A stretch of 64,000 bases of DNA, taken from positions 3,632 through 67,631 of the forward strand of contig JANNLG010000091.1 in NCBI GenBank assembly GCA_031396695.1. The letters run 5' to 3'. A program made the translations under genes and the position numbers. The stretch is from Deltaproteobacteria bacterium. Its GTDB lineage: Bacteria > Myxococcota_A > UBA9160 > SZUA-336. Position 1 is the stretch's first letter. The number at the start of each line of letters is the position of its first letter. Shown one piece after another: positions 15,073 through 35,147 of this stretch. The notes under the pieces are model-generated. The model saw only the letters and a list, made by a program, of their open reading frames with translations, searched no databases and was not told the DNA's origin.

Positions 15073-15228
15073 TCACGGCAACGTCGCGGGCGCCAGGTAG
15101 TACAGCTCGACCCATGCCCAAAGCGTGTACGAGACGATCGGGATCAACACCCCGAGCGCGAGCAGCAGCCACGGATTGTCCATGAGTCTCTGCAGCGGGT
15201 GGACGTAGCCCGAGTCACTTCGCGCCAT
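15073..15228 (-). CDS. Small single-TM membrane protein (oxidase accessory subunit candidate)
   Basis: 51 aa from the ATG at 15228 with a GAGGAGG RBS. One hydrophobic helix (PWLLLALGVLIPIVSYTLWAWV). Position is analogous to the small subunits of ba3/cbb3 oxidases. Confidence 0.5.
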   Translation of the reverse strand: MARSDSGYVHPLQRLMDNPWLLLALGVLIPIVSYTLWAWVELYYLAPATLP

Positions 15229-18438: not shown

Positions 18439-18492
18439 GGCAGGTTCCTCCTCGCGCTGGCTGCAAAGAGAACAGGCGCGCCGAGCGGCAGC

Positions 18493-18508
18493 TATGACGG
18501 CGGTCATA
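18493..18508. promoter_or_regulatory. Perfect palindrome TATGAC-GGCG-GTCATA (copy 3 of 5)
   Basis: Lies in the divergent gap. Centre is 62.5 bp from the 450-aa gene ATG (18438) and 42.5 bp from the nitroreductase ATG (18543). Confidence 0.7.
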
Positions 18509-18542
18509 AGCCGGGGGATTGCGCCCGGCTAGTGTCGTGTTG

Positions 18543-19329: not shown

Positions 19330-19737
19330 GTGCCGCTCGAGCGCGCACCGGACACGTTCGGGAGCGTGGCGATCTGGCGCGCGGGCCTGCGCGCGCAGTG
19401 GGGCGGCGACCCGCTGGCCGAGGAGCCGAGCCGGCTCGAGAGCCTGGCCGACTTCTGCGTTTTCGCCGGACAGGATCCCGACGCGCTGGTGGCGTTCTGC
19501 GTCCTGCGCAAACGCGACACCGGCGAGCGTTTCGCCAGCGCCGCCCGCCGCGCCGAACTCGCCGCGAAGCTGCGCGCCTGGGTCGCCGAGCGCGGACTCG
19601 CGGGCGCGGCGGCACCGCGCGCCTCGGCCGACGTGCTTTCGTTCCTGATCCACAACGGTGTCATGATGAACCCGGGCGCCGCGCACACGACGCCCCCGCC
19701 CGCGGGCCCGACCACGCCTCCCGGTCAGCCCGCGTAG
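19330..19737 (+). CDS. Hypothetical protein (135 aa)
   Basis: GTG start 4 nt after the nitroreductase stop. Strong GC3 bias in this frame. No motif recognised. The Pro-rich tail overlaps the convergent LLM gene by 13 nt. Confidence 0.5.
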   Translation: MPLERAPDTFGSVAIWRAGLRAQWGGDPLAEEPSRLESLADFCVFAGQDPDALVAFCVLRKRDTGERFASAARRAELAAKLRAWVAERGLAGAAAPRASADVLSFLIHNGVMMNPGAAHTTPPPAGPTTPPGQPA

Positions 19738-20750
19738 AAGAGCTTCGCGATCCGCTCCTGGTACGCGAACAGGCGATCGGGAGCGAGCGCGTAGGCCGGT
19801 GGAACGAGACACAGGGAGTCGGCGACGGTCCAGGCGCGCTCGACCTGCGCGCGCACGCGATCGTTCGAGCCGAGCAGCACGAAGCAACGAACCATCTCGT
19901 CGGGGACGAGCCGGGCGTGCGACAGCACCTCTCCGCGCTTGACCTCTTGCTGCAGACGCCGCGCGACATCGCCGAAGCCGTGGGCTTCGAAGAACGACTC
20001 GTACTGCTGGATTCCGGCGTAGAACGCGACGCTCGCGCGCGAGTCCTCGATCGCCTCGCCCTCGTCAGAGTTCGGTGCGCACCAGAGCCAGAGGTTCAGC
20101 TCGATGTCTTCGCGCTTTCGGCCCGCGCGCGCGAGGCCGGCGCGCAGATCGGGCTGGATGCGCTCGACCGCCCAATCGAGCGACCACATCGGATGGCCCA
20201 TCACGCCGTTCGCGATCTCTGCGGCCAGGCGCACGGCGGGGCCGCGCAGCGCGGCGATCCAGACGGGCACGTCCTCGCGCAGCGGCGGCGCGGTCGGTTG
20301 CAACTCGGCGAAGTCGGCCCGGTAGTAGCGGCCTTCGAAGGGCTCGAGCCCGCGGTGCGCACCGCGCATCACGTGGCGCACGGCGGCGACGGTCTCGCGC
20401 AGGTGCTCGAGCGGTCGGTGCTCGGGCGCGCCGAACACGCCGCGCGTCCACGCTTGCACGCTCGCGCCGAGACCGAGCACGAAGCGACCGCCGCTCAGGC
20501 GGTCGAGGTCGAGCGCCGCCATCGCCGTCTCGAACGGGCTGCGCGCGGCGGCGATCGCGATGCCGCTCGCGAGTTTCACGCGCTCGGTCGCCATCGCGGC
20601 GGCGGCGAGCGGAATCCACGGGGGTCCGTAGACCTGCGGCGCGAACAGCCCCTCGAGTCCCTGTGCCTCCGCCTGTCGCGCGATCACATTCAGGATCGGC
20701 GCCGGCAGCGCGCTCACGAAGCCCCAGTACCGCCGTCGAGCACTCATCAT
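19725..20750 (-). CDS. LLM-class (luciferase-like) flavin/F420-dependent oxidoreductase
   Basis: 341 aa from the ATG at 20750 (GGGAG RBS). Has LLM TIM-barrel hallmarks (GFVSALP..., SGGRFVLGLGAS, insertion region). Confidence 0.85.
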   Translation of the reverse strand: MMSARRRYWGFVSALPAPILNVIARQAEAQGLEGLFAPQVYGPPWIPLAAAAMATERVKLASGIAIAAARSPFETAMAALDLDRLSGGRFVLGLGASVQAWTRGVFGAPEHRPLEHLRETVAAVRHVMRGAHRGLEPFEGRYYRADFAELQPTAPPLREDVPVWIAALRGPAVRLAAEIANGVMGHPMWSLDWAVERIQPDLRAGLARAGRKREDIELNLWLWCAPNSDEGEAIEDSRASVAFYAGIQQYESFFEAHGFGDVARRLQQEVKRGEVLSHARLVPDEMVRCFVLLGSNDRVRAQVERAWTVADSLCLVPPAYALAPDRLFAYQERIAKLFYAG

Positions 20751-20805
20751 GCTGCTCCCTGTCTGCCGTCTCGTCACAGCATCGGCGACGCCATGGCTGG
20801 GCGGC

Positions 20806-20821
20806 TATGACGGGCGTCATA
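20806..20821. promoter_or_regulatory. Perfect palindrome TATGAC-GGGC-GTCATA (copy 4 of 5)
   Basis: Lies in the divergent gap. Centre is 63.5 bp from the LLM ATG (20750) and 41.5 bp from the RND adaptor ATG (20855). Confidence 0.7.
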
Positions 20822-20854: not shown

Positions 20855-22015
20855 ATGACTTCGAGACACTCTCGCTGCGCGTTCATGGCCGTGCTCGCCG
20901 CTTCGCTCTGGGGGAACGGCTGCAATTCCCCGGTGGCTCCCTCACTAGAAGACGAGCGCGCAGCGAAAGCTTCGGCCGCGTCCGCGGCGGCGCCCTCCGT
21001 CGAAGGCGTCTACACCGCGCTGGTTCACCGTGGCCAGATCGCGAGCACGATCACGACCTCGGGTTCGATCGCCGCGCGCCGCTCGACCACGCTCGGTCCG
21101 TCTGTGCCCGGACGCATCATCCACATCTTCGTGCAGGTCGGTGACGAGGTTCCGTTCGGCGCGCCGATCTTCCAGATCGACCCAGGGCCCTACGCGAGCA
21201 TCCAGGCCGAGGCGGATGCCGGTCTCGCGGTCGCGCGCGCCGACCTCGAGGACGCGCGCGAGAACGAAGCACGCATTGCCATGCTGGCCGCCAAGGAGAT
21301 GATCTCGAGCGAGGATCACCGCCGCGCGCGCACGGCGGTCAAGCTCGCGATGTCGCGGCTCGAGGCAGCCGAGGCGCGGGCATCGCGCGCGCGCGACGAC
21401 TTGAACCGCACGCTCGTGCTCGCGCCCTACGCGGGAAGCATCATCGAGCGCAGCACCCACGAGGGCACCATGGCGACGGTCACGCCGAACACCGCCGTCG
21501 TCGTGCTGCAGGAGAGCGGTGAGCTCGAGGCGATCGTCGACGTGCCCGAGGCATCGCGTATCGCCGTGCGGCCGGGTGACCGCGTGCGCATCTGGACCGA
21601 GGAGCTGCCCGCGCCGCTCGAGTCGGAGGTGCGCGCAGTGAGCCGCGCGATCGACCCGCGCACGCGTACCTACCGCGTGCGCGCGAGCGTTCGCGATCCG
21701 AGCAGCACGCTCAAGTCGGGCGCGTTCGTGCGCGCCGAGATCAGTCCCGGTCCGCGTCCGGAAGCGCTGCTCGTGGAGCGTTCCGCAGTCGTGCAGCGCG
21801 ACGGCAGCTCGTACGTCTTCCGCGTCGCCGACGGCCGCGCCGAACGCATCAGCGTGCGCCTCGGCGTGCTTGGCCTGCAGGACGCGGAAGTGCTCGATGG
21901 ACTCGCAGACGGCGACCGCGTCGTGCTCGGCGATGTGGTCGGGAGGCTCGATGACGGCGCGCGCGTGCGCCCGATCGAGGTCGCGGCGGGCCCTGCGCCG
22001 AAGGCGCGGCCGTGA
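20855..22015 (+). CDS. RND efflux periplasmic adaptor (membrane fusion protein), probable lipoprotein
   Basis: 386 aa. N-terminal hydrophobic segment ending in Cys (AASLWGNGC). Coiled-coil hairpin, lipoyl and beta-barrel pattern of the HlyD/AcrA family. GTGA overlap with the pump gene. Confidence 0.85.
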   Translation: MTSRHSRCAFMAVLAASLWGNGCNSPVAPSLEDERAAKASAASAAAPSVEGVYTALVHRGQIASTITTSGSIAARRSTTLGPSVPGRIIHIFVQVGDEVPFGAPIFQIDPGPYASIQAEADAGLAVARADLEDARENEARIAMLAAKEMISSEDHRRARTAVKLAMSRLEAAEARASRARDDLNRTLVLAPYAGSIIERSTHEGTMATVTPNTAVVVLQESGELEAIVDVPEASRIAVRPGDRVRIWTEELPAPLESEVRAVSRAIDPRTRTYRVRASVRDPSSTLKSGAFVRAEISPGPRPEALLVERSAVVQRDGSSYVFRVADGRAERISVRLGVLGLQDAEVLDGLADGDRVVLGDVVGRLDDGARVRPIEVAAGPAPKARP

Positions 22016-25000
22016 AGCTCGCCTCGCTCTCGATCCGGCGACCGGTGTTCGCGCTGATGCTGTCACTCGGGCTGGTCGTGCTCGGCTTGGTCTCGCTTTC
22101 GCGCCTCGAGATCGCGCTCGACCCGGACGTGGAGTTCCCGTTCATCGCGGTGACGACCGTGCTGCGCGGCGCCTCGCCCGAGACCGTCGAGTCCGAGATC
22201 ACCGACGTGCTCGAGGAGGAGATCAACACCACCGAGGGCATCCGCTCGCTGCGCTCGGTCTCCGCGGAGAGCCTCTCGCAGGTGTTCGTCGAGTTCGAGA
22301 TCGGCGAGGACGTCGACGTGAAGGCTCAGCAGATCCGCGACAAGGTCGCGCTCGCGCGTCCGCGGCTGCCGCTCGACGCGGAGGACTCCGTGGTCGCGCA
22401 GCTCGATCCGGACGCGGCGCCGATCCTGTCGATCCTGCTGGCGGGACCGTATGCGATTCGCGAGCTCTCCGAGCTCGCGGAGAACGAGGTCGCCGATCGC
22501 ATCGAGCGGCTGCCCGGAGTGGGCAGTGTCTCGGTCGTGGGCTCGCGCAGGCGCGAGATCCGCATCTGGCTCGATCCGCTGAGACTGTCCGGCTACGGGC
22601 TCTCGATCGAAGAGATCGCCGACGTGCTGCGCCGCGAGAACGCGGAGCTCGCCGGCGGCCGGATCGAGAACGCCGAGCAGGAGTGGGCGGTCACGACCGC
22701 CAACAAGGTCGGCCGGATCGACGACTTCGGCAGCCTGATCGTCGCCGAGCGTGGTGGCAGCCTCGTTCATCTGCTCGACGTGGCCACGATCGAGGACGGC
22801 CTGCAAGAGGAACGCAGCATCGCGCGCCTGAACGGCGAGCGCGGCGTTTCCCTCGAGGTGCGCCGACGCAGCGGCGCCAACACCGTCGCGGTTGCGCGCG
22901 CGGTGCGCGCGACCGTCGAGGAGCTGCGCGCGACCCTGCCCGCCGGCCTGTCGATGTCGCTCGCGCGCGACAACGCGACCTTCATCGAGGACTCGATCGG
23001 CTCGATCTTCGAGGACATGGTGCTCGGCGCGATCCTGACCGTAGCGGTCGTGCTGCTCTTCCTGCGCAACCTGCGCTCGACGCTGATCGCTGCACTCGCG
23101 ATCCCCGCCAGCGTGATCGCCTCGTTCACGTTCTTCCTGATGGCGGGCTTCACGCTGAACATGATGTCGCTGATGGCACTCTCGCTCTCAATCGGGCTGG
23201 TGATCGATGACGCGATCGTGGTGCTCGAGGCAATCTACCGCCGGCTCGAGTCTGGCGAGTCCCGCCGTGAGGCCGCGGACCGGGGAACCGAACAGGTCGG
23301 GCTCGCGGTCGTGTCCACGACACTCGCCGTGTGCGCGGTTTTCGTGCCGATCGCCTTCATGTCGGGCATGGTCGGCCAGTGGTTCTACGAGTTCGGCTTG
23401 GTCGTCGCGATCGCCGTCGGCGTCTCCACGCTGGTGGCGCTGACGCTCACGCCGATGCTTGCGAGCAAACTGCTGCGGCTCGAGCGTGCACCCGGTCGCA
23501 CGGTGCGCACGCTCGAGCGCGGCCAGACCGCGCTCGAGCACGGCTATCGGCGCCTGCTGGCCGGCGCGTTGCGACGCAAGGGACTCACGGTCGGCGCAGC
23601 GCTCGTCGCGATCGTGCTCGGACTCGGCGTGGCAGCGCTTCTGCCCTTCGACTTCTACCAACAGGGCGATCAAGGCGAGTTCGCGGTCGACGCCAAGCTC
23701 CCGATCGGAACACCGCTCGGCGTCACCGATCGGGTTTCTCGACGCATCGAGGAGATCGTCTCAGCCCAACCGCATGTGCTCGACGTGTTCGCGACGGTCG
23801 GGCCCGGCTTGCAGCGCGAAGCCAACCGCACGCACATCGTCGTGAAGCTGGTGCCGAAGCAGGAGCGGAGCGCGACCCAGCTCGACGTGATGGACGCCCT
23901 GCGCGAGACGCTGCACGATGCGGTGCCGGAGGCCGAGGAAATCTCCGTCGGCGAGCTCTCCTGGATCCAGTTCAGCGGTGGACGCTCCGCGACGCTCGTC
24001 TACACGCTGCGCGGTCCCGACCTCGAGCGGCTCGCAGGTCACGCGGCGGCGCTGGTCGCGCGCATGAAGTCCGACCCGGTCTTCGTCGACGTCGCGTCGT
24101 CGCACGAGACCGGCCGGCCGGAGATCCGGCTCACGCTCGCGCGCGACGTCGCCGCGGACTTGAGCGTGCCCGGCGTCGCGGTCGGCCGCACGATCCGCGC
24201 GCTGCTCGCCGGTGAGAAGGTCGGCACCTTCGAGCAGTCCGGCGAGCGCTACGACGTGCGCGTGCAGGTGCTCCCGGAGTATCGCGACGATCCCGGCGAG
24301 CTCGACCTGATCCGCGTGCGCTCCATGCGCGGCGATCTGGTCCCGCTCACCAACGTGGCGCGCGTGCGCATCGGCGAAGGCCCGGTCGAGATCCATCGCG
24401 AGGATCGCTCGCGGCAGATCACGCTGTACGCAAACCTCGCGCACGGCGCGCCACTCGGCGTCGGATCGCAGAAGCTCGAGGCCTGGGGCCGCGAGCTCGC
24501 GATCGTTAGCCCGGACGAGCTGGCGGCCGCGGGGCGCGCGCGCGCGATGATGGAGACGGGTACGGCCATCCGCTTCGCGTTCTTCCTGGCGCTCGCGGCC
24601 ATCTACATGATCCTCGCATCGCTGTTCAACTCGCTCGTGCATCCGTTCACGATCATGGTGTCCGCGCCGCTCGCGTTCATCGGCGGCTTCCTCGCGCTCT
24701 GGTTCGCGGGCATGTCACTCGACCTGATGAGCGGCATCGGCCTGCTGGTGCTTCTGGGTCTGGTGATGAAGAACGGCATCCTGCTGGTCGACTGCGCGAA
24801 CCAGCTGCGCGAGGACGGCCGGAGCGCGCAGAACGCCATGCTCGAGGCGGGCCCAGTGCGCTTGCGCCCCGTGCTGATGACGACGGGCGCGCTGATCTTC
24901 GGTCTGCTGCCGGTCGCGTTCAGTGCCAGCTCTGGCTCGGAATTCCGCGCACCCATGGCCATGATCACCGTCGGCGGCCTGTTGACCTCGACGCTGCTCA

Positions 25001-25146
25001 CCTTGGTCGTGGTTCCGGTCGTCTATTGCCTGCTCGATTCGCTGCGCATCGGCGCCGCATTGCGCCTCGGCACCGCTCTGCGCGAGCGGCTTCGCGGATG
25101 GTCAGGGCTCGTCGAAGAACGAATCGATCTCGGGCGGCGCCCGTAG
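22012..25146 (+). CDS. RND efflux transporter permease (AcrB/HAE family)
   Basis: 1044 aa. Internally duplicated 12-TM architecture with two large periplasmic loops. Typical N-terminus SIRRPVFALMLSL. Confidence 0.95.
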   Translation: MKLASLSIRRPVFALMLSLGLVVLGLVSLSRLEIALDPDVEFPFIAVTTVLRGASPETVESEITDVLEEEINTTEGIRSLRSVSAESLSQVFVEFEIGEDVDVKAQQIRDKVALARPRLPLDAEDSVVAQLDPDAAPILSILLAGPYAIRELSELAENEVADRIERLPGVGSVSVVGSRRREIRIWLDPLRLSGYGLSIEEIADVLRRENAELAGGRIENAEQEWAVTTANKVGRIDDFGSLIVAERGGSLVHLLDVATIEDGLQEERSIARLNGERGVSLEVRRRSGANTVAVARAVRATVEELRATLPAGLSMSLARDNATFIEDSIGSIFEDMVLGAILTVAVVLLFLRNLRSTLIAALAIPASVIASFTFFLMAGFTLNMMSLMALSLSIGLVIDDAIVVLEAIYRRLESGESRREAADRGTEQVGLAVVSTTLAVCAVFVPIAFMSGMVGQWFYEFGLVVAIAVGVSTLVALTLTPMLASKLLRLERAPGRTVRTLERGQTALEHGYRRLLAGALRRKGLTVGAALVAIVLGLGVAALLPFDFYQQGDQGEFAVDAKLPIGTPLGVTDRVSRRIEEIVSAQPHVLDVFATVGPGLQREANRTHIVVKLVPKQERSATQLDVMDALRETLHDAVPEAEEISVGELSWIQFSGGRSATLVYTLRGPDLERLAGHAAALVARMKSDPVFVDVASSHETGRPEIRLTLARDVAADLSVPGVAVGRTIRALLAGEKVGTFEQSGERYDVRVQVLPEYRDDPGELDLIRVRSMRGDLVPLTNVARVRIGEGPVEIHREDRSRQITLYANLAHGAPLGVGSQKLEAWGRELAIVSPDELAAAGRARAMMETGTAIRFAFFLALAAIYMILASLFNSLVHPFTIMVSAPLAFIGGFLALWFAGMSLDLMSGIGLLVLLGLVMKNGILLVDCANQLREDGRSAQNAMLEAGPVRLRPVLMTTGALIFGLLPVAFSASSGSEFRAPMAMITVGGLLTSTLLTLVVVPVVYCLLDSLRIGAALRLGTALRERLRGWSGLVEERIDLGRRP

Positions 25147-25620
25147 GCCCAGCTGGATCGCGGCGATATCCGCGATCTTCCGCCGCGCGGCGATCAGGTG
25201 GACCGGGATCGAGATCGCGATCGCCCAAGACAGCCAGATGTGGGAGTCGAGCGCGAAGTCGGCCGCGCCGACCGGCAGGTGCTCCTGCTGCCACAGCGCG
25301 AGGCCGGAGAGCGACAACAGCAGCGACAACACGAGCGTGAGCACGATGTGCAGCTTGCGCCAGTTCGGCGGATCGGGCGGGCCGAGCCGCGCGCCCAGGT
25401 CGCGAGCGAGCGGCCGCGCCGCGAGCGCCAACGAGAGCAGCGGCGCGGCGATGAACGCGAAGCCCGTCCACTCGTGCACGGCGGCGAGCGCCAGTCCGTA
25501 GCCGCCGAGCAGCTGCGCGCGCAGCTCCGGCCAGTGGATCAGAACGCCGGTGGCGACGAGCAGCAGGCTGGCGCAGGCATGCGCGGCGTGGAGGGCGCGT
25601 CGCAGGCTTCCCGGGCTCAT
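25102..25620 (-). CDS. Four-helix b-type cytochrome (cytochrome b561 / hydrogenase-FDH gamma-like) membrane protein
   Basis: 172 aa with 4 predicted TM segments and conserved-looking His on the helices (LIHW, AVHEW, LHIVL, SHIW...PVHL). Divergent from the molybdoenzyme operon. The RBS is weak. Confidence 0.6.
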   Translation of the reverse strand: MSPGSLRRALHAAHACASLLLVATGVLIHWPELRAQLLGGYGLALAAVHEWTGFAFIAAPLLSLALAARPLARDLGARLGPPDPPNWRKLHIVLTLVLSLLLSLSGLALWQQEHLPVGAADFALDSHIWLSWAIAISIPVHLIAARRKIADIAAIQLGLRAPPEIDSFFDEP

Positions 25621-25655: not shown

Positions 25656-25671
25656 TATGACAGCCGTCATA
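25656..25671. promoter_or_regulatory. Perfect palindrome TATGAC-AGCC-GTCATA (copy 5 of 5)
   Basis: Lies in the divergent gap. Centre is 66.5 bp from the gamma-subunit ATG (25730) and 43.5 bp from the cytochrome b ATG (25620). CAGATT lies 21 nt downstream toward the molybdoenzyme operon. Confidence 0.7.
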
Positions 25672-25729: not shown

Positions 25730-26401
25730 ATGCGCGCCCACTACGTCACTCCCGCGGAATTCTCGACGCTGCTCGCTCCGGACGCAGTCGGCTGGAATGC
25801 AGCAAGACCCGAGACCCTGCGGCTCTCGGGCACACCCCTGGCGCTGCAGCCGACGGCTGCGATCCAGGTTGCCTGGGCCAAGCGCAAGATCGGCGCGGTG
25901 GGTCGCGTCGAGGTGGCGGCGCTTCACGACGGCGCGCGTCTGGCGTTCCATCTCGACTGGCCGGATGCGACGGAGAACCGGGAGGTGAGCGACACCGTCA
26001 CCTTCGTCGACGCGGCCGCGGTCGTGCTGGCGGCGACCCCCGCCGCACCGCTGATCACGATGGGCGCGCCGGGCCTGCCGGTGAACGCCTGGTACTGGCG
26101 CGCCGACGAGACGCATGGTCGCGAGGTCATTGCCGAGGGCATCGGCTCCAGTCTCACGCTCGACGGAGCGCTCGTGACCAGCCAGGGACTTTGGAAAGGC
26201 GGCCGCTGGCACGTCGTGATCGCGCGTCTGTTGCACACAGCTGCTGGCAGCGCGGGCGTGCAGCTCGAACCCGGCCGGCCGACACCGTTCGCTGTCGCCG
26301 TCTGGGAAGGCTCGAACGGCGAGCGTGCGGGCATCAAGGCGTTCTCCGGCGAATGGCGGGAGCTCGTGCTCGACGTGATTCCCGCGTCGACGGCGGGGTG
26401 A
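25730..26401 (+). CDS. Type II DMSO-reductase-family gamma subunit (EB_dh heme-b domain), no signal peptide
   Basis: 223 aa. Ethylbenzene-dehydrogenase-gamma-like pattern (HLDWPD, NAWYWRAD, ERAGIKAFSGEW with a candidate Lys ligand, and a Met in ITMGAP). GGAGG is 7 nt before the ATG, and no upstream in-frame start is available. Confidence 0.8.
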   Translation: MRAHYVTPAEFSTLLAPDAVGWNAARPETLRLSGTPLALQPTAAIQVAWAKRKIGAVGRVEVAALHDGARLAFHLDWPDATENREVSDTVTFVDAAAVVLAATPAAPLITMGAPGLPVNAWYWRADETHGREVIAEGIGSSLTLDGALVTSQGLWKGGRWHVVIARLLHTAAGSAGVQLEPGRPTPFAVAVWEGSNGERAGIKAFSGEWRELVLDVIPASTAG

Positions 26402-26404
26402 GCG

Positions 26405-27427
26405 ATGTCGCAGCGACAGATCGCGATGGTCTTCGATCTCAACAAGTGCATCGGCTGCCAGACCTGCACGATCGCGTGCAAGCGGCTTTGGACCCGCGAC
26501 GAGGGCATGGAGTACATGTGGTGGAACACCGTGAACACCCAGCCCGGCCAGGGCACGCCCCGCAACTGGGAGCAGATGGGTGGCGGCTTCCGCGACGGCG
26601 TCGCGCAGCCGGGCCGCATGCCGACGCGCGACGACTTCGGCGACGCCTGGGAGTTCAACCAGCAGGAGGTGTTCCTCGGCGGCAAAGGCACCGCCCTGCA
26701 GCTGCGCCCCAACGGCAAGCAGCCCGAGTGGAGTCCGAACTGGGACGAGGACCAGGGCGCGGGTGAGTATCCGAACGCGCACTACTTCTATCTGCCTCGC
26801 ATCTGCAATCACTGCACGCATCCCGCCTGTCTCGAGGCGTGCCCGCGCAAGGCGATCGAGAAGCGCGAGCAGGACGGCATCGTGCTGATCAACGAAGAGC
26901 GCTGTCGCGGCTACCGCTTCTGCATGGAAGCTTGCCCGTACAAGAAGATCTACTTCAACCACGCGAAGAAGGTCTCGCAGAAGTGCATCTTCTGCTTCCC
27001 GCGCATCGAGCAGGGCGTCGCGCCCGCGTGCGCGCGCATGTGCCCCGGCCGCGTGCGCTTCGTCGGGTACCGCGACGATCCGGCCGCGCCGATCCACAAG
27101 CTCGTCGACGTGTGGAAGGTGGCGATCGCGCTCCACCCGGAATACGGGACGGAGCCCAACGTATTCTACGTGCCGCCGCTCGCGCCGCCGCGCTTCGACG
27201 CGAACGGCGAGATCGATGGCTCCAAGCCGCGCATCCCGGACGAGTATCTCGTCTCGCTGTTCGGTCCCGACGTATTCCGGGCGCTCGAGATCCTGAAGGC
27301 GGAGATGGCGAAGACGCGCGCCGGCGGGAAGTCGGAGCTGATGGACCTGCTGATCGGCTACCGCTGGAAGGAGATGTTCGGCGGCTTCGACACCGATCCC
27401 GCGACGCTCGAGAGAAAGAGCGCATGA
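26405..27427 (+). CDS. Type II DMSO-reductase-family beta subunit (NarH/EbdB-like, 4 Fe-S clusters)
   Basis: 340 aa. Motifs: MVFDLNKCIGCQTCTIACK, CNHCTHPACLEACP, CRGYRFCMEACPY, CIFCFPRIE...CARMCP. Confidence 0.9.
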   Translation: MSQRQIAMVFDLNKCIGCQTCTIACKRLWTRDEGMEYMWWNTVNTQPGQGTPRNWEQMGGGFRDGVAQPGRMPTRDDFGDAWEFNQQEVFLGGKGTALQLRPNGKQPEWSPNWDEDQGAGEYPNAHYFYLPRICNHCTHPACLEACPRKAIEKREQDGIVLINEERCRGYRFCMEACPYKKIYFNHAKKVSQKCIFCFPRIEQGVAPACARMCPGRVRFVGYRDDPAAPIHKLVDVWKVAIALHPEYGTEPNVFYVPPLAPPRFDANGEIDGSKPRIPDEYLVSLFGPDVFRALEILKAEMAKTRAGGKSELMDLLIGYRWKEMFGGFDTDPATLERKSA

Positions 27428-30273
27428 CCCTCGCAATCGACCGCAGGACCTTCATGCGCGGAGCGGCGGCCGGCTCCGCGTCGCTTGCGCTCGGCCTGTT
27501 CCGCCTGCGCCCCGCCGACGCCGCCGCGCTCGCGGTGCCGGTGGCGTACGCGGACTGGCGCGACGTGTATCGCCAGAAGTGGACATGGGACAAGGTCGTG
27601 CGCTCGACTCACTTCGTGAACTGCTGGTACCAGTCACACTGCGCATGGAACGTGTACGTGAAGGACGGCATGGTCTGGCGCGAGGAGCAGGCGGCGGACT
27701 ACCCGCAGATCCGACCGGATGTGCCGGACTTCAATCCGCGCGGCTGTCAGAAGGGCGCGTGCTTCAGTGAGCGCATGTATGACCCCGCGCGCGTGAAGTA
27801 CCCGCTGAAGCGCGTGGGTCCGCGCGGCTCCGGGCGATGGAAGCGCATCTCCTGGGACCAGGCGCTCGACGAGCTGGCCGACTCGCTGATCGACACGATC
27901 ACGCAGGAGGGCACGGACCGCGTGATCTGGGAGGTCGGTCCTCTCTACACCCTCGGCACGATGGGCGCGGGGCACCAGCGCATGGTGCTGCTGCTCGACT
28001 CGGTCTCGCTCGACATGAACACCGAGATCGGAGACGGACACCGCGGCGCGGCCGAGACCTTCGGCAAGATCGTCTTCGAGCGCTCAGCCGACGACTACTT
28101 CTTCTCCGACCTGATCCTGTGTTGGGGTGCAAACCCGGTCGCGACCCAGATTCCCAACGCGCACTTCCTGCTCGAGGCGCGCTACAAGGGCGCGGAGCTG
28201 GTCACGATCGCTCCGGATTTCAGTCCGTCGGCGATGCACGCGGACCGCTGGATTCCCGTGAAGCCGGGCGGCGACGCCGCGCTCGGGCTCGGCATGGCGC
28301 ACGTGCTCGTCGAAGAAGGCCTGTTCGACCGCGCGTTCGTGCTCGAGCAGACGGACATGCCGCTGCTCGTGCGCGACGACACTCACCGCTATCTGCGCAG
28401 CTCCGACCTGCAGCAAGGCGGCGACGACGAGGAGCTGTACGTCCACGACGCCAAGCGCGGCATCGTGCCGATCGGACGCCGAACGCTCGCGCTCGACGGA
28501 CTCCAGCCTTCGCTCGAGGGGCGCTTCGACGCGAAGCTCTCCGACGGCAAGACGGTGCCGGTGCGTACGGTCTTCTCGATCCTGCGTGAACGCCTCGCGG
28601 GCTATACGCCCGAGCGCGCGGCCGAGCTCTCCGGCACGCCCGCTGCGCAGATCCGCTGGCTCGCGCGCCGCATGGCGAAGTCCAAGGCCGCCTGCATGGT
28701 CACGACCAGCAACTTCAGCAAGTACTACCACGGCAACCTGATCGAGCGGACGCAAGCGCTCGTGTTCGCGCTGACCGGAAACTACGGCAGGAAGGGCAGC
28801 GGCTTCGTCGGCTTCCCGTTCCTGGTGCACGACGGGCTCGAGCGCCTGACGCTCTCGATGTTCGACCTGCCGCTGCGCGCGCTGGTCGCGGCGGACGTGG
28901 TGATCGACACCGTCAAGCTGAAGCTCGCCGGCTGGACCGACGAGATGATCGCCTACGAGCGCAGCCGCGAGATGTACGCGAACGGCAGCGGCGCCAGCGG
29001 CTCGCTGTTCTGGTACGTGCACGGCGGATTGCTCGAGGCGAGCGAGAAGCTCGAGGACTGGGATCCGTACCTGAAGCGACCGGTCAAAGACGTGCTGAAG
29101 GAGTCTCTGGAAAAGAACAGGCAGCAGGTGGTGCCCGCGCCCGGCCGCGATCCGCGCTTCATGTTCGTCTACGGCAGCAATCCGCTGCGCCGGATCCGAT
29201 CCTACCCGTTGGTGCTCAAGAATCTGTGGCCGAAGCTCAAGACCGTCGTGACGCTCGACTGGCGCATGACCTCGACGGGTATGCAGTCGGACTACGTGCT
29301 GCCCGTGTCCGCTTGGTACGAGCGCACCGAACACAAATGGGTGACGCCGCTCATGCCGTTCATCCACGCGGGCGAGAAAATGACCCAGTTCTACGAGGCC
29401 AAGTCAGACTGGGAGATCCTGTCGCTGCTCACGCAGCGGGTCGAGAAGCGCGCGGCGGTGCGCGGGATCGAGAAGTTCCACGATCGCGCGGGCCGCGAGC
29501 GCAGCTTCCCCGGCCTCTACGCCGCCTTCTCTCAAGACGGAGCCTACGGACCGACCGACGACGACAAGGTCGCGAAGGCGCTGCTCGCGCACTCGACGAA
29601 CTTCAACGAGGTCGACTGGGAGGCGCTCAAGAAGAAGGGCTGGGCGCGCTTCACGAGCCTGGGCACGAATCCACTCTCGATCGGCAACGCGACGCAGATC
29701 AAGCCCGACGACACGATCACGCCGCTCACCGATCATGTGATCGACAAAGTCCCCTACCCGACTCTCTCGCGGCGCATGCAATTCTATCTCGACCAGGAAC
29801 TGTATCTCGAGATGGCGGAGGAGCTTCCGGTCCACAAAGACCCGCCGTCGGCCGGCGGACGCTATCCGCTCACGCTCACGGGCGGACACACGCGCTGGAG
29901 CATCCACTCCGCGTGGCGCGACGACGCTCTCATGCTCCGGCTGCAACGCGGAGAGCCCGTGATGTACATGAGCTCGGAGGATGCGAAGACGCGCGGCATC
30001 GAGGACGCCCAGATCGTGCGCGTCTGGAACGACCTCGACTCCTTCCAGGTGATGGCCAAGCTCTCGCCCGCGCTGCGGCCGGGGCAGGTCACCATCTACC
30101 ACGCCTGGGACAACTTCCAGTTTCGGGGCGGCAAGGGCTTCCAGAATCTGATTCCGACGCCGCTCAACCCCGTCGAGCTCGCCGGTGGCCAGTTCCACTT
30201 GCGACCGATGGTCATCTGCCTGCAGCCCAGTCACACCGACCGCGACACGCGCGTGGAAGTCGCGCTCGCATGA
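27424..30273 (+). CDS. Type II DMSO-reductase-family molybdopterin catalytic alpha subunit, Tat-exported
   Basis: 949 aa from the ATG at 27424 (ATGA overlap with the beta stop). Twin-arginine signal DRRTFMRGAAAGSASLALG. His-first FS0 motif THFVNCWYQSHC...PRGCQKGAC, typical of the Nar/Ebd-type clade. Has MopB and C-terminal molydopterin-dinucleotide-binding regions. Confidence 0.9.
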   Translation: MTLAIDRRTFMRGAAAGSASLALGLFRLRPADAAALAVPVAYADWRDVYRQKWTWDKVVRSTHFVNCWYQSHCAWNVYVKDGMVWREEQAADYPQIRPDVPDFNPRGCQKGACFSERMYDPARVKYPLKRVGPRGSGRWKRISWDQALDELADSLIDTITQEGTDRVIWEVGPLYTLGTMGAGHQRMVLLLDSVSLDMNTEIGDGHRGAAETFGKIVFERSADDYFFSDLILCWGANPVATQIPNAHFLLEARYKGAELVTIAPDFSPSAMHADRWIPVKPGGDAALGLGMAHVLVEEGLFDRAFVLEQTDMPLLVRDDTHRYLRSSDLQQGGDDEELYVHDAKRGIVPIGRRTLALDGLQPSLEGRFDAKLSDGKTVPVRTVFSILRERLAGYTPERAAELSGTPAAQIRWLARRMAKSKAACMVTTSNFSKYYHGNLIERTQALVFALTGNYGRKGSGFVGFPFLVHDGLERLTLSMFDLPLRALVAADVVIDTVKLKLAGWTDEMIAYERSREMYANGSGASGSLFWYVHGGLLEASEKLEDWDPYLKRPVKDVLKESLEKNRQQVVPAPGRDPRFMFVYGSNPLRRIRSYPLVLKNLWPKLKTVVTLDWRMTSTGMQSDYVLPVSAWYERTEHKWVTPLMPFIHAGEKMTQFYEAKSDWEILSLLTQRVEKRAAVRGIEKFHDRAGRERSFPGLYAAFSQDGAYGPTDDDKVAKALLAHSTNFNEVDWEALKKKGWARFTSLGTNPLSIGNATQIKPDDTITPLTDHVIDKVPYPTLSRRMQFYLDQELYLEMAEELPVHKDPPSAGGRYPLTLTGGHTRWSIHSAWRDDALMLRLQRGEPVMYMSSEDAKTRGIEDAQIVRVWNDLDSFQVMAKLSPALRPGQVTIYHAWDNFQFRGGKGFQNLIPTPLNPVELAGGQFHLRPMVICLQPSHTDRDTRVEVALA

Positions 30274-30878
30274 GCGCCGAGGCGCGCAGTCACGCGTATC
30301 GAGTCTTCGCCGAGGCGTTCGGCTATCCGGAGGGGGAGCTACTCGACGAGATCCGGAGCGGTGCGCTGCGCGACGCAGTGCACGAGGCGCTCGAAGCCGT
30401 CTCTCCCGGACTCGAGGAAGAGTTCGATCGCGAAGCGCTGCACGTCGACGGCGACGGAGACGCGCTTGCCGCCGAGTACACGCGCCTGTTCGACGTGGGC
30501 ACTTCCGGTCCGCCCTGCCCCCTGCACGGCGGACTCTGGATGGGTGACCGCATGAAGACGATGGAAGAGGTGCTGCGCTTCTACCGCCACTTCGGGCTCA
30601 CGGTGGGGGGCGAACCGAGCGAGCTTCCCGATCATCTCGGGCTCGAGCTCGAGTTCCTGCACTACCTCGCGTTCCGCGAGAGCCAGGCGCTGCGCGACGG
30701 CACCGATCCGGGCGCCTTCACACGCGCGGAGCGCGATTTCCTGACTCGCCATCCGGGCCGCGCCGTTCCGCTGCTGCGCGCGAAGCTCGAGCAAGTGCAG
30801 GCGGCGCCCTTCTTCGTCGCGCTGGCGCGCGCGCTCGAAGGTCTGCTGGCCCACGCTCGTGCGCAGCTCGACTCCTAG
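30270..30878 (+). CDS. TorD/NarJ-family molybdoenzyme maturation chaperone (delta subunit)
   Basis: 202 aa from the ATG at 30270 (ATGA overlap with the alpha stop). Motifs: YRVFAEAFGYP, EYTRLF, PDHLGLELEFLHYL. Confidence 0.8.
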   Translation: MSAEARSHAYRVFAEAFGYPEGELLDEIRSGALRDAVHEALEAVSPGLEEEFDREALHVDGDGDALAAEYTRLFDVGTSGPPCPLHGGLWMGDRMKTMEEVLRFYRHFGLTVGGEPSELPDHLGLELEFLHYLAFRESQALRDGTDPGAFTRAERDFLTRHPGRAVPLLRAKLEQVQAAPFFVALARALEGLLAHARAQLDS

Positions 30879-31670
30879 CTGCCCTTGTTCTCGCCCACGA
30901 AGCCCTGCACGTCGCGCATGTGCTTGCGACCCGCGGGCTGGTAGCTGTAGAGCAGCGCGCGCCGATCGGACTCGCTGCGGTTGGGCTGCGAGCGGTGCAC
31001 CAGGTAGGGGCCGAAGTAGGCGACCGTGCCCGCGGGCACGACTAGCGGCACGAGCCGCTCGGTGTCAAAACGCTCGAGGTCCATCTCGTACTGACCGAAG
31101 TCCTCGACCTCGCGGCGCGGCATTTCGCCACTGCGGTGACTGCCGGGCACGACCTCGAGGCAGCCGTTCTCGAGCGTCGCGTCGTCCAGGAAGAGCATCG
31201 CGGTTCCGACCTCGTCCGCGTTCTCGGCCACGCCCACCCAGTAAGGGTGATCCTGGTGCAGCACGATCGGCCCGCCGACCCGCGCGCGTTTCACGTTCAG
31301 CTTCTCGGTGAAGAGGCCCACTGCGTCGACGCCGACGACGTCTTGCATCGGCTCGAGGAAGCGCGCGTCGTGCGCCCACCGGTTCAGCGCCTCGGACAGG
31401 TGCGCGAACGACCACGACACCCTGCAGCGCGTCGTGGTCGTGCGCTTCCCACTTCACCATCGTGCCGAACTCGCGCTGTAGCTCGAACACGTACGCCCCG
31501 ATCGGCCACTTCCGGCGGCGCTTCAGGTCGAGCAGACGCTGGCAGAGCTCCTCGCAGGCGTCGCGGATCTCGCGCAGCTCGCGGGCGTCGAAGGCCTGGC
31601 TTCGCACCACGAAGCCGTCGCGCTCGAGCGCCGCCTTCTCGTCCGGAGAGAAGCGCCGAGATGGCTGCAT
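30875..31670 (-). pseudogene. Phytanoyl-CoA dioxygenase (PhyH)-family gene interrupted by a 1-nt frameshift near 31415-31430
   Basis: The N-terminal ~83 aa (MQPSRRFSPDEKAALERDGFVV...KWEAHDHDALQG) are in the frame of ORF 31065..31685. The catalytic part (HQDHPYW...LVHRS) is in the frame of ORF 30875..31420. The span is 796 nt, not divisible by 3. GAGGAGG RBS before the ATG at 31670. Could also be an assembly error. Confidence 0.6.
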
Positions 31671-31728
31671 GGCTGTCCTCCTCACAGCTGAGTTTCGGCA
31701 TGATACGGTCGCGAGAGATGGGGTTTCA

Positions 31729-32493
31729 ATGAACTATCCGGACGCCTCGAGGGCGCAGCGCGAGTTCTTCCGGGAGCACGGCTGGCTCGTGGTCGAGGAC
31801 GCAGTCGCGCTCGACGAGCTCGCCGAAGTCTCTCGGCGCATGGAGATCATCCTCGAGAAGAAGGAGAAGCTCGCCTTCGACTGGGCCTGGGAAAAGGGCA
31901 AGTCAAAAGAGGCGCGCGAGTTCAAGATCGTGCAGGGCAGCCCGACGCTGGTCTGGAGCGAGATCGCGCAGCAGCCCTTCCGACGCTGGGCGCTCGCCTT
32001 CGCCGCGTCGCTTTCCGGCAAGCCGGTCGAGTTCTGGTACGACCAGTTCCTGGCCAAGCCACCGCGCGACGGCGCGCCCACGTACTGGCACCAGGACGAG
32101 GGCTACTGGGGCCGCAACCTCGACGAGCTCGGGCTCACCTGCTGGCTTCCGCTGCACGACGTGGACGAGACGAACGGCTGCATGTGCTTCATCGACCGCG
32201 GCCATCGCGACGGAATCCTCGAGCACTTCCACCCGGAGCACATCCAGAGCGACCTGCTCTACTGCGAGCCCGACCTGTCGCGGCGCGTCGCCTGCCCGAT
32301 CCGCGCGGGCAGCGTCACGTTCCACCACGGCAAGACCCCCCACATGACGCCGCCCAACACGAGCGAAGCCTGGCGCCGCGCGGTGACGACACACATGCGT
32401 GTCGAGGGCAGCCCCGGCGAGGGCGATCACTTCCCGTGGAAGACCTACGTCAACCAGATCACGGGCGAGACGACCGTTCCGCCTCGTCGCTGA
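31729..32493 (+). CDS. Phytanoyl-CoA dioxygenase (PhyH)-family Fe(II)/2OG oxygenase
   Basis: 254 aa. REFFREHGWLVVEDA, facial triad context YWHQDEGYW and TFHHGKTPH. Start chosen at the ATG at 31729 rather than the extended ORF start. Confidence 0.8.
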   Translation: MNYPDASRAQREFFREHGWLVVEDAVALDELAEVSRRMEIILEKKEKLAFDWAWEKGKSKEAREFKIVQGSPTLVWSEIAQQPFRRWALAFAASLSGKPVEFWYDQFLAKPPRDGAPTYWHQDEGYWGRNLDELGLTCWLPLHDVDETNGCMCFIDRGHRDGILEHFHPEHIQSDLLYCEPDLSRRVACPIRAGSVTFHHGKTPHMTPPNTSEAWRRAVTTHMRVEGSPGEGDHFPWKTYVNQITGETTVPPRR

Positions 32494-32500
32494 GCGCGCG

Positions 32501-33325
32501 ATGACCGTCGCCGAGCTCTACCTGGAACTCCTGAAACGCTCGCTCACGCGCACCGAGCTGGGCGAGACCTGGCGTCCGTACCTGCCCAAGGCGCGGCACC
32601 GGCTGCGCCGAGCCTTCGCGCTCGGGCTGCGAGGCTGGCTGCGACGGCGCGGCTTGGACCTGGTGCGTCGCACCGAGGTCGACCCGAGCCGGCGCGCGCT
32701 CGGACGCGACCGAACGCCTGCGGGCGAGACCATGATCGGCCAGCGTCGGCTCGACCACTTGCAGGCGTGCCTCCGAGACCTGCTCGAGAAGGGCGTGCCC
32801 GGGGATCTGATCGAGACGGGCGTGTGGCGCGGCGGAGCCGTGATCTTCATGCGCGCAGCGCTCGCGGCCTTCGGCGACGAGTCCCGGCGCGTCTGGGTCG
32901 CGGACTCGTTCGAGGGCCTGCCGCGCGCGGAGTCCGATCGCTTCGCGTCCGACCGCGGACAGCTGCACTGGACCGACGTGGAGCCGGCCGTCTCGCTCGA
33001 GACCGTGAAGCGGAACTTCGAGCGCCACGGCCTGCTCGACGAACGCGTGCGCTTCCTGGCCGGCTGGTTCCGCGACACGTTGCCCGACGCCCCGATCGAC
33101 GCGCTCGCGCTGCTCCGGCTCGACGGGGTCACCTACGACTCGACGCTCGACGCGCTGCGCCCGCTCTATCCGAAGCTCTCGCCCGGCGGCTACCTGATCG
33201 TCGACGACTGGGCGCTCGAGGGCTGCCGGCGCGCGGTCGAAGACTACCGCCGCGAACATGCGATCCGAGAGACGATCGTCGAGATCGACGGCAGCGCCGT
33301 CTACTGGCAGAAGCGTTCGGGCTAG
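32501..33325 (+). CDS. TylF/MycF-family (macrocin-type) O-methyltransferase
   Basis: 274 aa. [16 protein letters not shown] motif and [15 protein letters not shown]...[10 protein letters not shown] metal/SAM region, typical of the TylF family. Confidence 0.85.
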
Positions 33326-34326
33326 CCGAGATCGCTCGCGAGCTGCGGAAACACGCGCGAGACCTTCGCGACCAGATACTCGCCGTAGCTGCCCTCGAAG
33401 GCGTGCACGCTCTGGCCGTCCCAGCGCGATTCGCGATCGTCCGCGCGCGCCGGCAAGCCCTCGATCGGCTGCACGCGCGCGTGGAAGCCGGGATCGAAGA
33501 AGAGCGGGAACGAGAGCCGGTCGCGCAGCGCGCTCGCGCGCACGCGGTGCGGCGTCGAGCGGTACAGCCCGCGTGTCATGCGGTCGAGCATGTCGCCGAT
33601 GTTGCAGACGAAGCTGCCCGGGATCGGCGCAGCGTCGATCCAGCCCGCGTCGGTGCGGATCTCGAGCCCGCCGTTGTCGTCCTGTAGCAGCAGCGTGAGC
33701 AGGCCGTAGTCGGTGTGCTCGCCGACGCCCCAGACTCCGACGCTTTCCGGTGTCGGCGCGGGATAGTTGAAGATCCGGAACAGCACCAGCGGCTCGGCGG
33801 TGTAGCGGCACGCGAAGTAGTCCTCCTCGAGCTCCAGGCTCAGCGCGATCGCCGCGACTAGCCGCTGTCCGAGCGCGGTCAGCGCGGCGACGTAGTCGAG
33901 CACGGTCTCGCGGAAGCCGGGCAGATCGGGGAACAGGTTCGCGCCGTGCATGGGTGTACGCGCGCGCACCAGCGGGTGCTCGGGCGGCAGCTCCGTGCCC
34001 AGGTACAGGCCCTCCTTGCGATCGGGAACGCCGGACGTGAGCTCGTCGCCGACGCCGAAGTAGCCGCGCCAGGCTCGGCCGCCGTGCGCCATGGCGATGC
34101 GCTGCTTGCTCGACAGGTCACTCGCGAAGAACGCGCGAGAGAGGGATTCGAGCCGCATCAGCAACGCTCCGTCCACGCCGTGGCCCGTGACGTAGAAGAA
34201 ACCGTGCGCGCGGCAGGCTTCGCCGATCTGCCCTGCGACGCGGCGGCGATCCCGGATGTCGCCGGCGAGCGGCGCCACGTCGATCACCGGAACGATCGCC
34301 GCGAGATCGGTTGGGCTGGAGGTCAT
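33322..34326 (-). CDS. 2OG-Fe(II) oxygenase (isopenicillin N synthase-like family)
   Basis: 334 aa from the ATG at 34326. [10 protein letters not shown]-terminal DIOX_N motif, [12 protein letters not shown] (HxD) and STPHRV (distal His/Arg). Confidence 0.85.
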
Positions 34327-34488
34327 GATCGATTCGGGCCAGTATCGCAGAACAGGAGACGCGCGACGGACACCGAACCCGCACAGACCGAGAGCAGCCC
34401 GCCCGATGCGAGCGCCGAGACCACGACGGTCGCGGCCGAGGCCGCGCAGCACCTGCGCGGCCTCGCGAACGAGCTCCCCGAGCTGATC

Positions 34489-34803
34489 TTGGGGCTCGGC
34501 GGGCTGGCCTCGGCGGAGGCTTCGCTCAGCCTGACCGCCCTCCTGCGCATGCTCGGCTTGCGTGCGATCGGCGTCGTCCTGGTCGCGGTCGCGATCGCGC
34601 TGGTTGTAGTCGCCGCGACGCTGCTGCTCTCGCAGTGGCTCGGCTCCAGCTCCGCTGCGCTGGGCTTGGTGGCCGCGGCGGCGCTCGGGCTCGCCTGGCT
34701 CTCGATCTGGCGCGCGGGTGTCTGGCGGGCGCGGATCGGGTTCACGCGCACGCGCGAAGCGCTCGGGGCCGAGCCGCCGCCGCGCGAGGGCCCGCGCCCA
34801 TGA
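34489..34803 (+). CDS. YqjE-like (holin-X/DUF1469-type) two-TM membrane protein, start uncertain
   Basis: Two hydrophobic helices ([40 protein letters not shown]). The stop forms an ATGA overlap with the next gene. No in-frame ATG/GTG between 34327 and 34548. I chose the TTG at 34489; the ATG at 34549 is the alternative. Confidence 0.45.
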
Positions 34804-35147
34804 CGGCCAAACAGTCGCTCGCGCGCGTCGAACGCGAGAGCGCGCGAGCCACGGCGGCTCGAAACGCGCTCGCGCTGCGCGCGGAGCCGCTGATCCGACT
34901 CGCGGGCCGCGTGCACCCGCTCGCGCTCGCGGGCTCCGCATTCGCCGCCGGCCTGCTCGCGGGTCGTCTGTTCGGACGGCCGCGGCTTCCGCGCGCGCTC
35001 GAGCCCGCTGCGCTGATCTCGAATACGCTTGCGAGGTCGCTCGCGGGCTTGCTCGAGTCGTTCGTCTCGGCCGCGCTCGCGCCGGCTCCGGCTAGCGACG
35101 GCTCGACAGCAGATAGCCCGCCAGGAACGCGATCCCGAGCGCCGTGA
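34800..35147 (+). CDS. YqjK-like small membrane protein (hypothetical)
   Basis: 115 aa with ATGA coupling to the preceding gene. One hydrophobic segment ([15 protein letters not shown]). The 3' end overlaps the convergent DUF883 gene by 56 nt, so the true end is uncertain. Confidence 0.45.

Follow-up and report, generated by a model that had tools for sequence, protein, structure and literature searches.

Introduction

Oxygen-independent hydroxylation of C-H bonds by molybdenum enzymes is rare, and the characterised handful consists of ethylbenzene dehydrogenase (EbDH or EBDH), p-cymene dehydrogenase (CmDH) and the steroid C25 and C26 dehydrogenases (S25DH and S26DH). Here we present an operon of four genes at positions 25730-30878 of a 64 kb stretch (the window; about 70% G+C) of contig JANNLG010000091.1 from a Deltaproteobacteria bacterium. 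It encodes a molybdenum enzyme, predicted to be periplasmic, of the same type as the ethylbenzene, p-cymene and steroid dehydrogenases; the genes that appear to be linked to it are described as well.

The p-cymene dehydrogenase CmdABC of the denitrifying betaproteobacterium Aromatoleum aromaticum pCyN1 resembles the window enzyme in the order of its genes (gamma-beta-alpha, with delta further downstream), in the ATGA overlap of the beta and alpha genes, in the twin-arginine translocation (Tat) signal on alpha and in a gamma subunit without leader. Both alpha subunits have the motif H-x3-C-W-Y/F-Q-x-H-C for the iron-sulfur cluster FS0, the aspartate ligand of molybdenum and a lysine motif, and their clades are sisters at 100/100. 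Differences are the separate clade of the window enzyme, the absence from its operon of the short-chain dehydrogenase/reductase (SDR) gene that lies between alpha and delta in the cmd locus, the aryl-CoA reductase genes found nearby only in cmd, the FdnI-like cytochrome b gene that adjoins the window operon and is missing from the cmd locus, and the host, which is here of Myxococcota type.

The enzymes S25DH1-4 and S26DH1 of Sterolibacterium denitrificans were compared by gene order and architecture as given in the literature. They resemble the window system in the alpha-beta-gamma architecture with molybdenum, Fe-S clusters and haem b, in the Tat signal on alpha, in the delta protein (essential in S25DH/S26DH) and in the gamma-beta-alpha order. 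Several alpha paralogs per beta-gamma pair, as described for S25DH, are seen in relatives of the window operon, whereas the window itself has a single alpha. According to the literature the acceptor of S25DH is cytochrome c, whereas here a cytochrome b gene is linked.

EBDH, encoded by ebdABC(D) and available as a structure (PDB 2IVF), shares with the window enzyme the His/Cys ligands of FS0 with a two-residue insertion, the residues equivalent to Asp223 and Lys450 of EbdA, the four cysteine groups of beta, the Met/Lys ligation of the gamma haem and a leaderless gamma. Its alpha subunit is only 40% identical and belongs to another sub-branch of the tree, and EbdA His192 is not found in the window protein.

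The chlorate reductase ClrABDC of Ideonella and the haloarchaeal NarGH systems have likewise an Asp-ligated alpha with Mo-bisPGD (molybdenum bis(pyranopterin guanine dinucleotide)), a beta with four clusters, a gamma of the EB_dh type and a chaperone of the TorD type. They differ in an alpha of 34-37% identity that is encoded first, in the shorter FS0 spacing C-x3-C and in a gamma with a leader. Finally, FdnI, the cytochrome b556 of Escherichia coli formate dehydrogenase-N (PDB 1KQF chain C), is related to the adjoining cytochrome b of the window by the family PF01292 and by four aligning haem histidines. The similarity is very distant, and FdnI has the membrane-anchored FdnH as partner, whereas here the soluble haem-b gamma subunit would dock.

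Gene content and family assignment

The operon comprises four co-directional genes on the forward strand, as read from the open reading frame (ORF) listing and the translations. The first encodes gamma, a leaderless haem-b subunit of the EB_dh/DOMON type (25730-26401, 223 aa; Pfam EB_dh, E 5.5e-28), and is followed after 3 nt by the gene for beta, the Fe-S subunit with clusters FS1-FS4 (26405-27427, 340 aa; Fer4_11, E 2e-32). The third encodes the catalytic subunit alpha, of the Mo-bisPGD type and with a Tat signal (27424-30273, 949 aa; Molybdopterin, E 4.5e-36; Molydop_binding, E 4.2e-16), and the fourth delta, a NarJ/TorD-type assembly chaperone (30270-30878, 202 aa; Nitrate_red_del, E 2.6e-21). 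The DNA has ATGA overlaps between beta and alpha (27424-27427) and between alpha and delta (30270-30273).

NCBIfam holds one model for each type II subunit, namely TIGR03479 for alpha, TIGR03478 for beta, TIGR03477 for gamma and TIGR03482 for delta. Beta exceeds the cutoff of its model with 525 bits (cutoff 480.7), as does delta with 163.7 bits (cutoff 152.3). The best matches among solved structures are EbdA for alpha (2ivf_A, E 1e-203), EbdB for beta (2ivf_B, E 8.6e-135, with all four cysteine groups aligned) and EbdC for gamma (2ivf_C, E 9e-32). The family matches are strong, and gamma, beta, alpha and delta are not chance ORFs.

An earlier description made from the letters alone (the sequence-only reading) had listed these four ORFs, the ATGA overlaps, the 949-aa alpha and an FS0 spacing of H-x3-C-x5-C, all of which were found as stated when the sequence was re-read. 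Its assignment of the operon to the type II dimethyl sulfoxide (DMSO) reductase family, with an alpha of EbdA size, is correct.

Cofactor residues and export signals

The N-terminus of alpha, MTLAIDRRTFMRG, is a twin-arginine signal with the motif RRTFMRG. FS0 reads H-F-V-N-C-W-Y-Q-S-H-C, with the fourth cysteine in NPRGCQKG. Asp204, in the motif EIGD, aligns with EbdA Asp223 and is the predicted molybdenum ligand. The lysine motif K-x-Y/F-H-G is conserved as well; it is the equivalent of EbdA Lys450, which hydrogen-bonds and fixes the Asp ligand.

In the alignment FS0 reads HLNICWPQGSC in EbdA and HHLNCWYQAHC in CmdA, with an equivalent sequence in P0143, a paralog of CmdA. The two-residue insertion, CW(Y/F/P)Q..C, is common to these three proteins and the window alpha, whereas ClrA, haloarchaeal NarG (pNarG) and PcrA have the shorter C-x3-C without insertion. 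The lysine motif is distributed in the same way: the window alpha, EbdA, CmdA and P0143 have it, whereas ClrA, pNarG and PcrA do not. As judged from this alignment the insertion is a mark of the hydroxylase sub-branch and not an oddity of the window alpha; the suggestion that its FS0 environment may be unusual can thus be set aside, the spacing being normal for its own branch. The insertion is not universal there, as tandem alpha paralogs of the relatives have H-x4-C-x3-C.

In the alignment with EbdC, the haem ligands Met108 and Lys201 of that protein fall on Met111 and Lys203 of gamma. No start codon lies between the preceding stop and position 25730, and gamma has no hydrophobic N-terminal leader. 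The missing signal peptide was considered as an anomaly and ruled out as such, since CmdC, the EbdC structure chain (2ivf_C) and all homologs of the clade are leaderless too. ClrC and the haloarchaeal EB_dh protein have N-terminal leaders. Beta has no membrane helix. Only alpha carries a Tat signal, beta and gamma being leaderless, which is consistent with the predicted co-export of the complex.

Gene order

The p-cymene dehydrogenase locus of A. aromaticum has the order gamma-beta-alpha-SDR-delta, with the same ATGA overlap between beta and alpha. All 29 of the 29 related metagenome loci that retain gamma have the same order as the window, gamma-beta-alpha(-alpha2(-alpha3))-delta. For S26DH1/S25DH of Sterolibacterium the literature gives the gamma-beta-alpha part of the order only, and the S25DH genes for gamma3 and beta3 were amplified together as a single 1.8-kb fragment (PMC6016249). 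The loci of Ideonella chlorate reductase and of haloarchaeal NarGH, both read directly, have the orders alpha, beta, delta, gamma and alpha, beta, EB_dh, TorD, respectively. The ebd operon is encoded alpha first.

The gamma-beta-alpha order is the norm for hydroxylases of the CmDH/S25DH type. The order had been called atypical, which holds against the alpha-first clrABDC and haloarchaeal narGH and fails within the enzyme's own branch, as represented by the cmd locus and the 29 relatives. With the cmd locus as a characterised homolog of the same order, and with FS0 aligned as above, little of what the sequence-only reading had regarded as special in gene order and FS0 spacing sets this operon apart from its branch.

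Phylogenetic position and relatives

The closest relative of the window alpha among the characterised sequences compared is the p-cymene dehydrogenase alpha subunit CmdA (AIS23703.1 / UniRef100_A0A096ZNW8), with 49% identity over the full length, followed by EbdA (40%), PcrA (38%), haloarchaeal NarG (37%) and ClrA (34%). The other subunits share 69% (beta to CmdB), 36% (gamma to CmdC) and 31% (delta to CmdD) identity with the Cmd proteins. Published values are 42% identity between S25dA8 and CmdA and about 38% between S25dA5-7 and S25dA1; set against these, the window alpha is, at 49%, comparatively close to CmdA.

A search among 1.84 billion representatives at 50% identity delivered 872 relatives at E <= 1e-30, the best representative being a member of the CmdA-like group. 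The cluster members of the ten best representatives carry only names from metagenome-assembled genomes (MAGs). Over 100 sequence clusters share 65-91% identity with the window alpha. Two of the 50%-cluster representatives of related alpha subunits, P0239 (1152 aa) and P0248 (1130 aa), begin with about 200 additional residues; their alignment with the window alpha starts after these, at its residue 21 or 48. No named Sterolibacterium protein was found among the database matches to the window alpha, to the alpha of the related locus L071 and to a tandem alpha2 paralog.

A neighbour-joining tree was calculated from 58 sequences (representatives, exemplars of loci and references) with 100 bootstraps. 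In agreement with what the sequence-only reading had proposed as a check, the tree, which includes CmdA, EbdA, PcrA, pNarG and ClrA, gives the window alpha a defined position: its clade (support 100) is sister to the CmdA clade (support 100) and does not lie inside it. The CmdA clade holds CmdA, its paralog and MAG proteins from Rhodocyclaceae and Halioglobus; its members are 53-68% identical to CmdA, compared with 45-49% for the clade of the window alpha. EbdA belongs to another sub-branch of the larger hydroxylase grouping, which has a support of 64-96, and PcrA, pNarG and ClrA stand outside this grouping.

A scan of species-representative genomes found 79 related loci (L001-L079), all in MAGs, mainly of Myxococcota/'Deltaproteobacteria' and Binatia, with some from Gammaproteobacteria and Chloroflexota. 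Conserved neighbours were counted by tblastn, because an ORF filter based on GC3-GC2 mis-called beta and delta in the window, which is rich in G+C and has long shadow ORFs. In the relatives second and third alpha paralogs lie in tandem between alpha and delta; they are about 40% identical to one another and accompany a single beta-gamma pair. These tandem genes (L004 12910-15753, L039 15765-18569 and about 45 others in L001-L079) are also about 40% identical to the window alpha. Their FS0 has the form H-x4-C-x3-C, e.g. HNRTNCISAC, the tree places them in the hydroxylase branch, and a database search with one of them delivered only unnamed or generically named MAG proteins.

Adjoining cytochrome b

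Upstream of gamma and divergent from it lies a gene for an FdnI-like four-helix dihaem cytochrome b (25102-25620, reverse strand, 172 aa; Pfam Ni_hydr_CYTB, E 4.7e-10). A homolog adjoins the operon in 19 of the 27 clade loci with enough flanking DNA, in one of three arrangements: divergent upstream, within the operon directly before gamma, or after delta. In the relatives a MobB gene is often found between the cytochrome b gene and gamma.

Among solved structures a profile of 14 members matches only FdnI (1kqf_C, E 2e-5). The FdnI haem ligands His18, His57, His155 and His169 are matched in the alignment by the invariant histidines His11, His49, His127 and His141. The conserved residues other than histidine (P31, R34, G39-G40-Y41 and D121) are located on the side that is predicted to be periplasmic by the positive-inside rule. 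No CxxCH motif of cytochrome c was found in the plausible window ORFs scanned, and the literature searched contained no link between cytochrome b561 and EBDH-like enzymes. Comparative genomics points to this cytochrome b as the likeliest candidate for the membrane redox partner and next electron acceptor of the enzyme.

Palindrome, regulator and linked genes

The 64 kb contain exactly five copies of a perfect palindrome of 16 bp, TATGAC-N4-GTCATA. Allowing two mismatches adds no further match in the window, compared with 0.3 matches in shuffled sequence. Every copy is situated in or at the edge of an intergenic gap. One, TATGACAGCCGTCATA (25656-25671), is a putative operator between the cytochrome b gene and gamma. 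The copy at 20806-20821 separates the gene of a luciferase-like (LLM) oxidoreductase from acrA, and that at 18493-18508 lies between a 473-aa ORF (17086-18507, reverse strand) and a nitroreductase-like gene. The remaining two flank a gene for a Crp-family regulator, one (7949-7964) 71 bp upstream of it and the other (7178-7193) between it and an acyl-CoA dehydrogenase (ACAD) block, 26 bp upstream of the ACAD start. Eleven related loci carry the palindrome at corresponding positions; the copy in L083 at 8198, for instance, is the counterpart of the one between the cytochrome b gene and gamma.

The regulator of the Crp/FNR family (7189-7878, reverse strand) matches Pfam cNMP_binding and HTH_Crp_2. 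It has no N-terminal cysteine cluster, which rules out oxygen sensing of the FNR type. Homologs are encoded close to palindrome copies in L004, L022 and L064, and the regulator is a candidate for binding the palindrome and probably controls the regulon that the palindrome appears to define.

The acyl-CoA module (2202-7152, reverse strand), identified by Pfam and NCBIfam matches, consists of the ACAD (5914-7152), a nitroreductase-like protein (5089-5877), an SCPx-type thiolase (3834-5066) and an AMP-forming CoA ligase (2202-3818). All four genes recur as a block within about 3-9 kb of the operon in L002/L083, L006/L084, L014 and L015; L009 and L028 have three of them near it. In the relatives the thiolase is 80% and the nitroreductase-like protein 74% identical to the window proteins.

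Between the module and the operon, the window encodes a second nitroreductase-like protein (18519-19325, forward strand; Pfam nitroreductase family match) and the luciferase-like oxidoreductase of the F420/FMN class (19725-20777, reverse strand; Bac_luciferase, E 8e-54), which is divergent from acrA across the palindrome and reaches 196 bits against TIGR03617, under the cutoff of 278.15. On the forward strand follows a resistance-nodulation-division (RND) pair, with a membrane-fusion protein (20855-22015; HlyD_D23) and an AcrB-type pump (22012-25146; ACR_tran, E 1.9e-266). The pair is syntenic in L002/L083, where a palindrome copy (at 1973) again lies where the acrA-type gene begins. From its positions, the palindrome appears to link the operon to the RND pump, the flavoproteins, the Crp-family regulator and the acyl-CoA module in one putative regulon. 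A pump in such a regulon fits the handling of a hydrophobic compound.

Proposed function

The operon probably encodes a periplasmic, oxygen-independent and water-dependent C-H hydroxylase of the ethylbenzene/p-cymene/steroid-C25 dehydrogenase branch, as suggested by its sequence and its neighbours. Oxyanion reduction, nitrite oxidation and C-H hydroxylation had previously all been regarded as possible, with a substrate that cannot be read from the sequence. The substrate class can be narrowed, as C-H hydroxylation is favoured over reduction of nitrate, chlorate or selenate and over nitrite oxidation by the phylogeny, the Lys450 motif, the leaderless gamma and the putatively co-regulated acyl-CoA genes. 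The substrate is probably an alkyl-aromatic compound, an isoprenoid or a sterol-like side chain.

By homology with EBDH, the delta chaperone would hold apo-alpha in the cytoplasm during insertion of Mo-bisPGD and FS0, and alpha, beta and the leaderless haem-b gamma would be assembled there. The folded complex would then be exported through the Tat system on the RRTFMRG signal of alpha, with beta and gamma as hitchhikers. In the periplasm the Mo(VI)=O group, held by Asp204 and fixed by the lysine, may oxidise a C-H bond of a hydrophobic substrate, the hydroxyl group being derived from water. Two electrons would pass from FS0 via FS1-FS4 to haem b (Met111/Lys203) and from there most likely to the divergent and putatively co-regulated FdnI-like dihaem cytochrome b. 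The alcohol may be converted to an acid, activated by the AMP-forming ligase and shortened by ACAD and thiolase, whose module carries the same palindrome.

Several points weigh against this assignment. Alpha and gamma remain just under the cutoffs of their NCBIfam models (936 bits against 984.75 and 142 bits against 169.85), and an identity of 49% to CmdA does not fix the chemistry. The clade of the window alpha, whose members are 58-91% identical to it, is known from MAGs only and has no characterised member, and the tree was calculated without S25dA, S26dA, SerA, DdhA and AhyA. EbdA His192, which was proposed for the rebound of the hydroxyl group, is not conserved in the window alpha; it is missing from CmdA as well, and a review reports no equivalent in S25DH (PMC6153880). 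The acyl-CoA module of the window is 19 kb away from the operon and not adjacent to it. A reductase would be served just as well by a quinone-linked cytochrome b, and reduction of menaquinone would be uphill because the haem b of EBDH has a potential near +250 mV (PMC8840923).

That the enzyme hydroxylates the side chain of a sterol or isoprenoid as S25DH/S26DH do, with subsequent degradation via CoA activation and thiolytic cleavage, is a narrower version of the proposed hydroxylase and is in itself rather unlikely. It would agree with the gamma-beta-alpha order of S26DH1, with the two or three alphas per beta-gamma pair that relatives of the window share with Sterolibacterium, and with a module of SCPx/lipid-transfer-type thiolase, ACAD and acyl-CoA ligase. 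The ligase matches the model for steroid-22-oyl-CoA synthetase, far below its cutoff, and the clade member P0057 was named 'steroid C-25 hydroxylase alpha subunit' by the Joint Genome Institute (JGI), a name that is an automatic label. Against it stand the single alpha of the window, the lack in the window of recognisable genes for steroid rings and of a 25-hydroxysteroid kinase, and a comparison that holds no S25dA or S26dA sequence.

Less probable still is a role in periplasmic respiration, with an enzyme that reduces an oxyanion (nitrate, chlorate, perchlorate, selenate or another) and would receive its electrons from quinol by way of the FdnI-like cytochrome b and the haem of gamma. Reductases of this sort do occur in the family, the identities to PcrA (38%) and pNarG (37%) are little below that to EbdA (40%), and the adjoining membrane dihaem cytochrome b would be in place in a chain that oxidises quinol; in some relatives the operon is flanked by NnrS genes, and HemN and the Crp-family regulator are encoded in the window. 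These observations are opposed by the position of alpha, sister to the CmdA clade at 100/100 and apart from PcrA, pNarG and ClrA, by the hydroxylase-type FS0 insertion and lysine motif, and by the absence from gamma of the leader found in ClrC and the haloarchaeal EB_dh protein. In addition, no chlorite dismutase was found among the window ORFs scanned against Pfam (a few ORFs were unscanned), the putative regulon holds genes for acyl-CoA catabolism, and the relatives have the two or three tandem alpha paralogs per beta-gamma pair described for S25DH.

A true ortholog of CmdABC that hydroxylates the benzylic methyl group of p-cymene is very improbable, as the closeness to CmdA and the common gene order, ATGA overlap and FS0 are outweighed by two distinct clades (support 100 for that of the window alpha), by the identities to CmdA of 53-68% inside its clade as compared with 45-49%, by the low identities of gamma and delta (36% and 31%) and by a cmd locus in which an SDR gene separates alpha from delta and genes of the BcrAD/BadFG type lie close by, neither kind of gene being found among the window ORFs scanned against Pfam.

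Within the proposed hydroxylase branch, the window operon and its relatives in MAGs of Myxococcota, Binatia and some Gammaproteobacteria could form a widespread variant in which the soluble complex docks on a dedicated FdnI-type dihaem cytochrome b and delivers its electrons to the quinone pool, not to a soluble cytochrome c, with one regulon of the whole pathway under control of the Crp-family regulator and the palindrome. This more specific proposal is put forward tentatively, as a possibility on the doubtful side.

Other genes in the window and in related loci

Downstream of the operon a block at 30875-34941 encodes two dioxygenases of the PhyH family, followed by a TylF-type O-methyltransferase and a 2-oxoglutarate-Fe(II) (2OG-Fe(II)) oxygenase. 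One PhyH gene is convergent with delta, their stop codons overlapping in CTAG. Enzymes of the PhyH/2OG-Fe(II) type are oxygen-dependent and have here a hydroxylase of 'anaerobic type' as neighbour. Conservation of the block in the relatives is limited to one PhyH match in L022.

Beside COX1/COX2-like genes the window has genes for a UbiA-DUF420 fusion (8417-9754, reverse strand) and a 695-aa fusion of cytochrome b, 4Fe-4S ferredoxin and FlpD (9765-11852, reverse strand). Genes of the latter type and of the UbiA family are syntenic with the molybdenum enzyme operon in two relatives (L083 1-1977, L084 848-3920), the fusion of UbiA with DUF420 being present in L083 only of the two relatives examined.

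In the relatives a 350-aa multi-helix membrane protein without Pfam match adjoins delta, to which some loci add an NnrS-family protein (L083 13577-16103, L084 16479-17531; also L004, L006, L028 and L050). The window has neither of the two. In the p-cymene dehydrogenase locus (L082) a gene for an APH-family kinase is found a few kb downstream (17266-18465). The APH family also includes the 25-hydroxysteroid kinase from the anaerobic degradation of cholesterol.

Three window ORFs (15215-16666 and 17086-18507 on the reverse strand, 19330-19737 on the forward strand) have a coding-like G+C content at third codon positions (GC3) and no match in Pfam or NCBIfam. The first, of 483 aa, is a polytopic membrane protein adjoining the oxidase genes, and the second, of 473 aa, starts at a palindrome. 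A further ORF with coding-like GC3 (39936-41753, forward strand) has no match in Pfam, the sole library with which it was compared.

Significance

What the locus would add to the known kind of enzyme is confined to the conserved cytochrome b and the palindrome-defined regulon, to which comparative genomics points in both cases. The linked cytochrome b and the shared palindrome are concrete handles for experiments. The window enzyme is one of a large and abundant clade, sister to CmdA, for which MAGs are the only source. Surveys of hydrocarbon genes report abundant cmdA/ebdA/ahyA annotations, e.g. in MAGs of Myxococcota (PMC12529799), and members of this clade probably contribute to these counts. 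Knowledge of the substrate would alter the reading of such surveys and could add a biocatalyst for regioselective hydroxylation.

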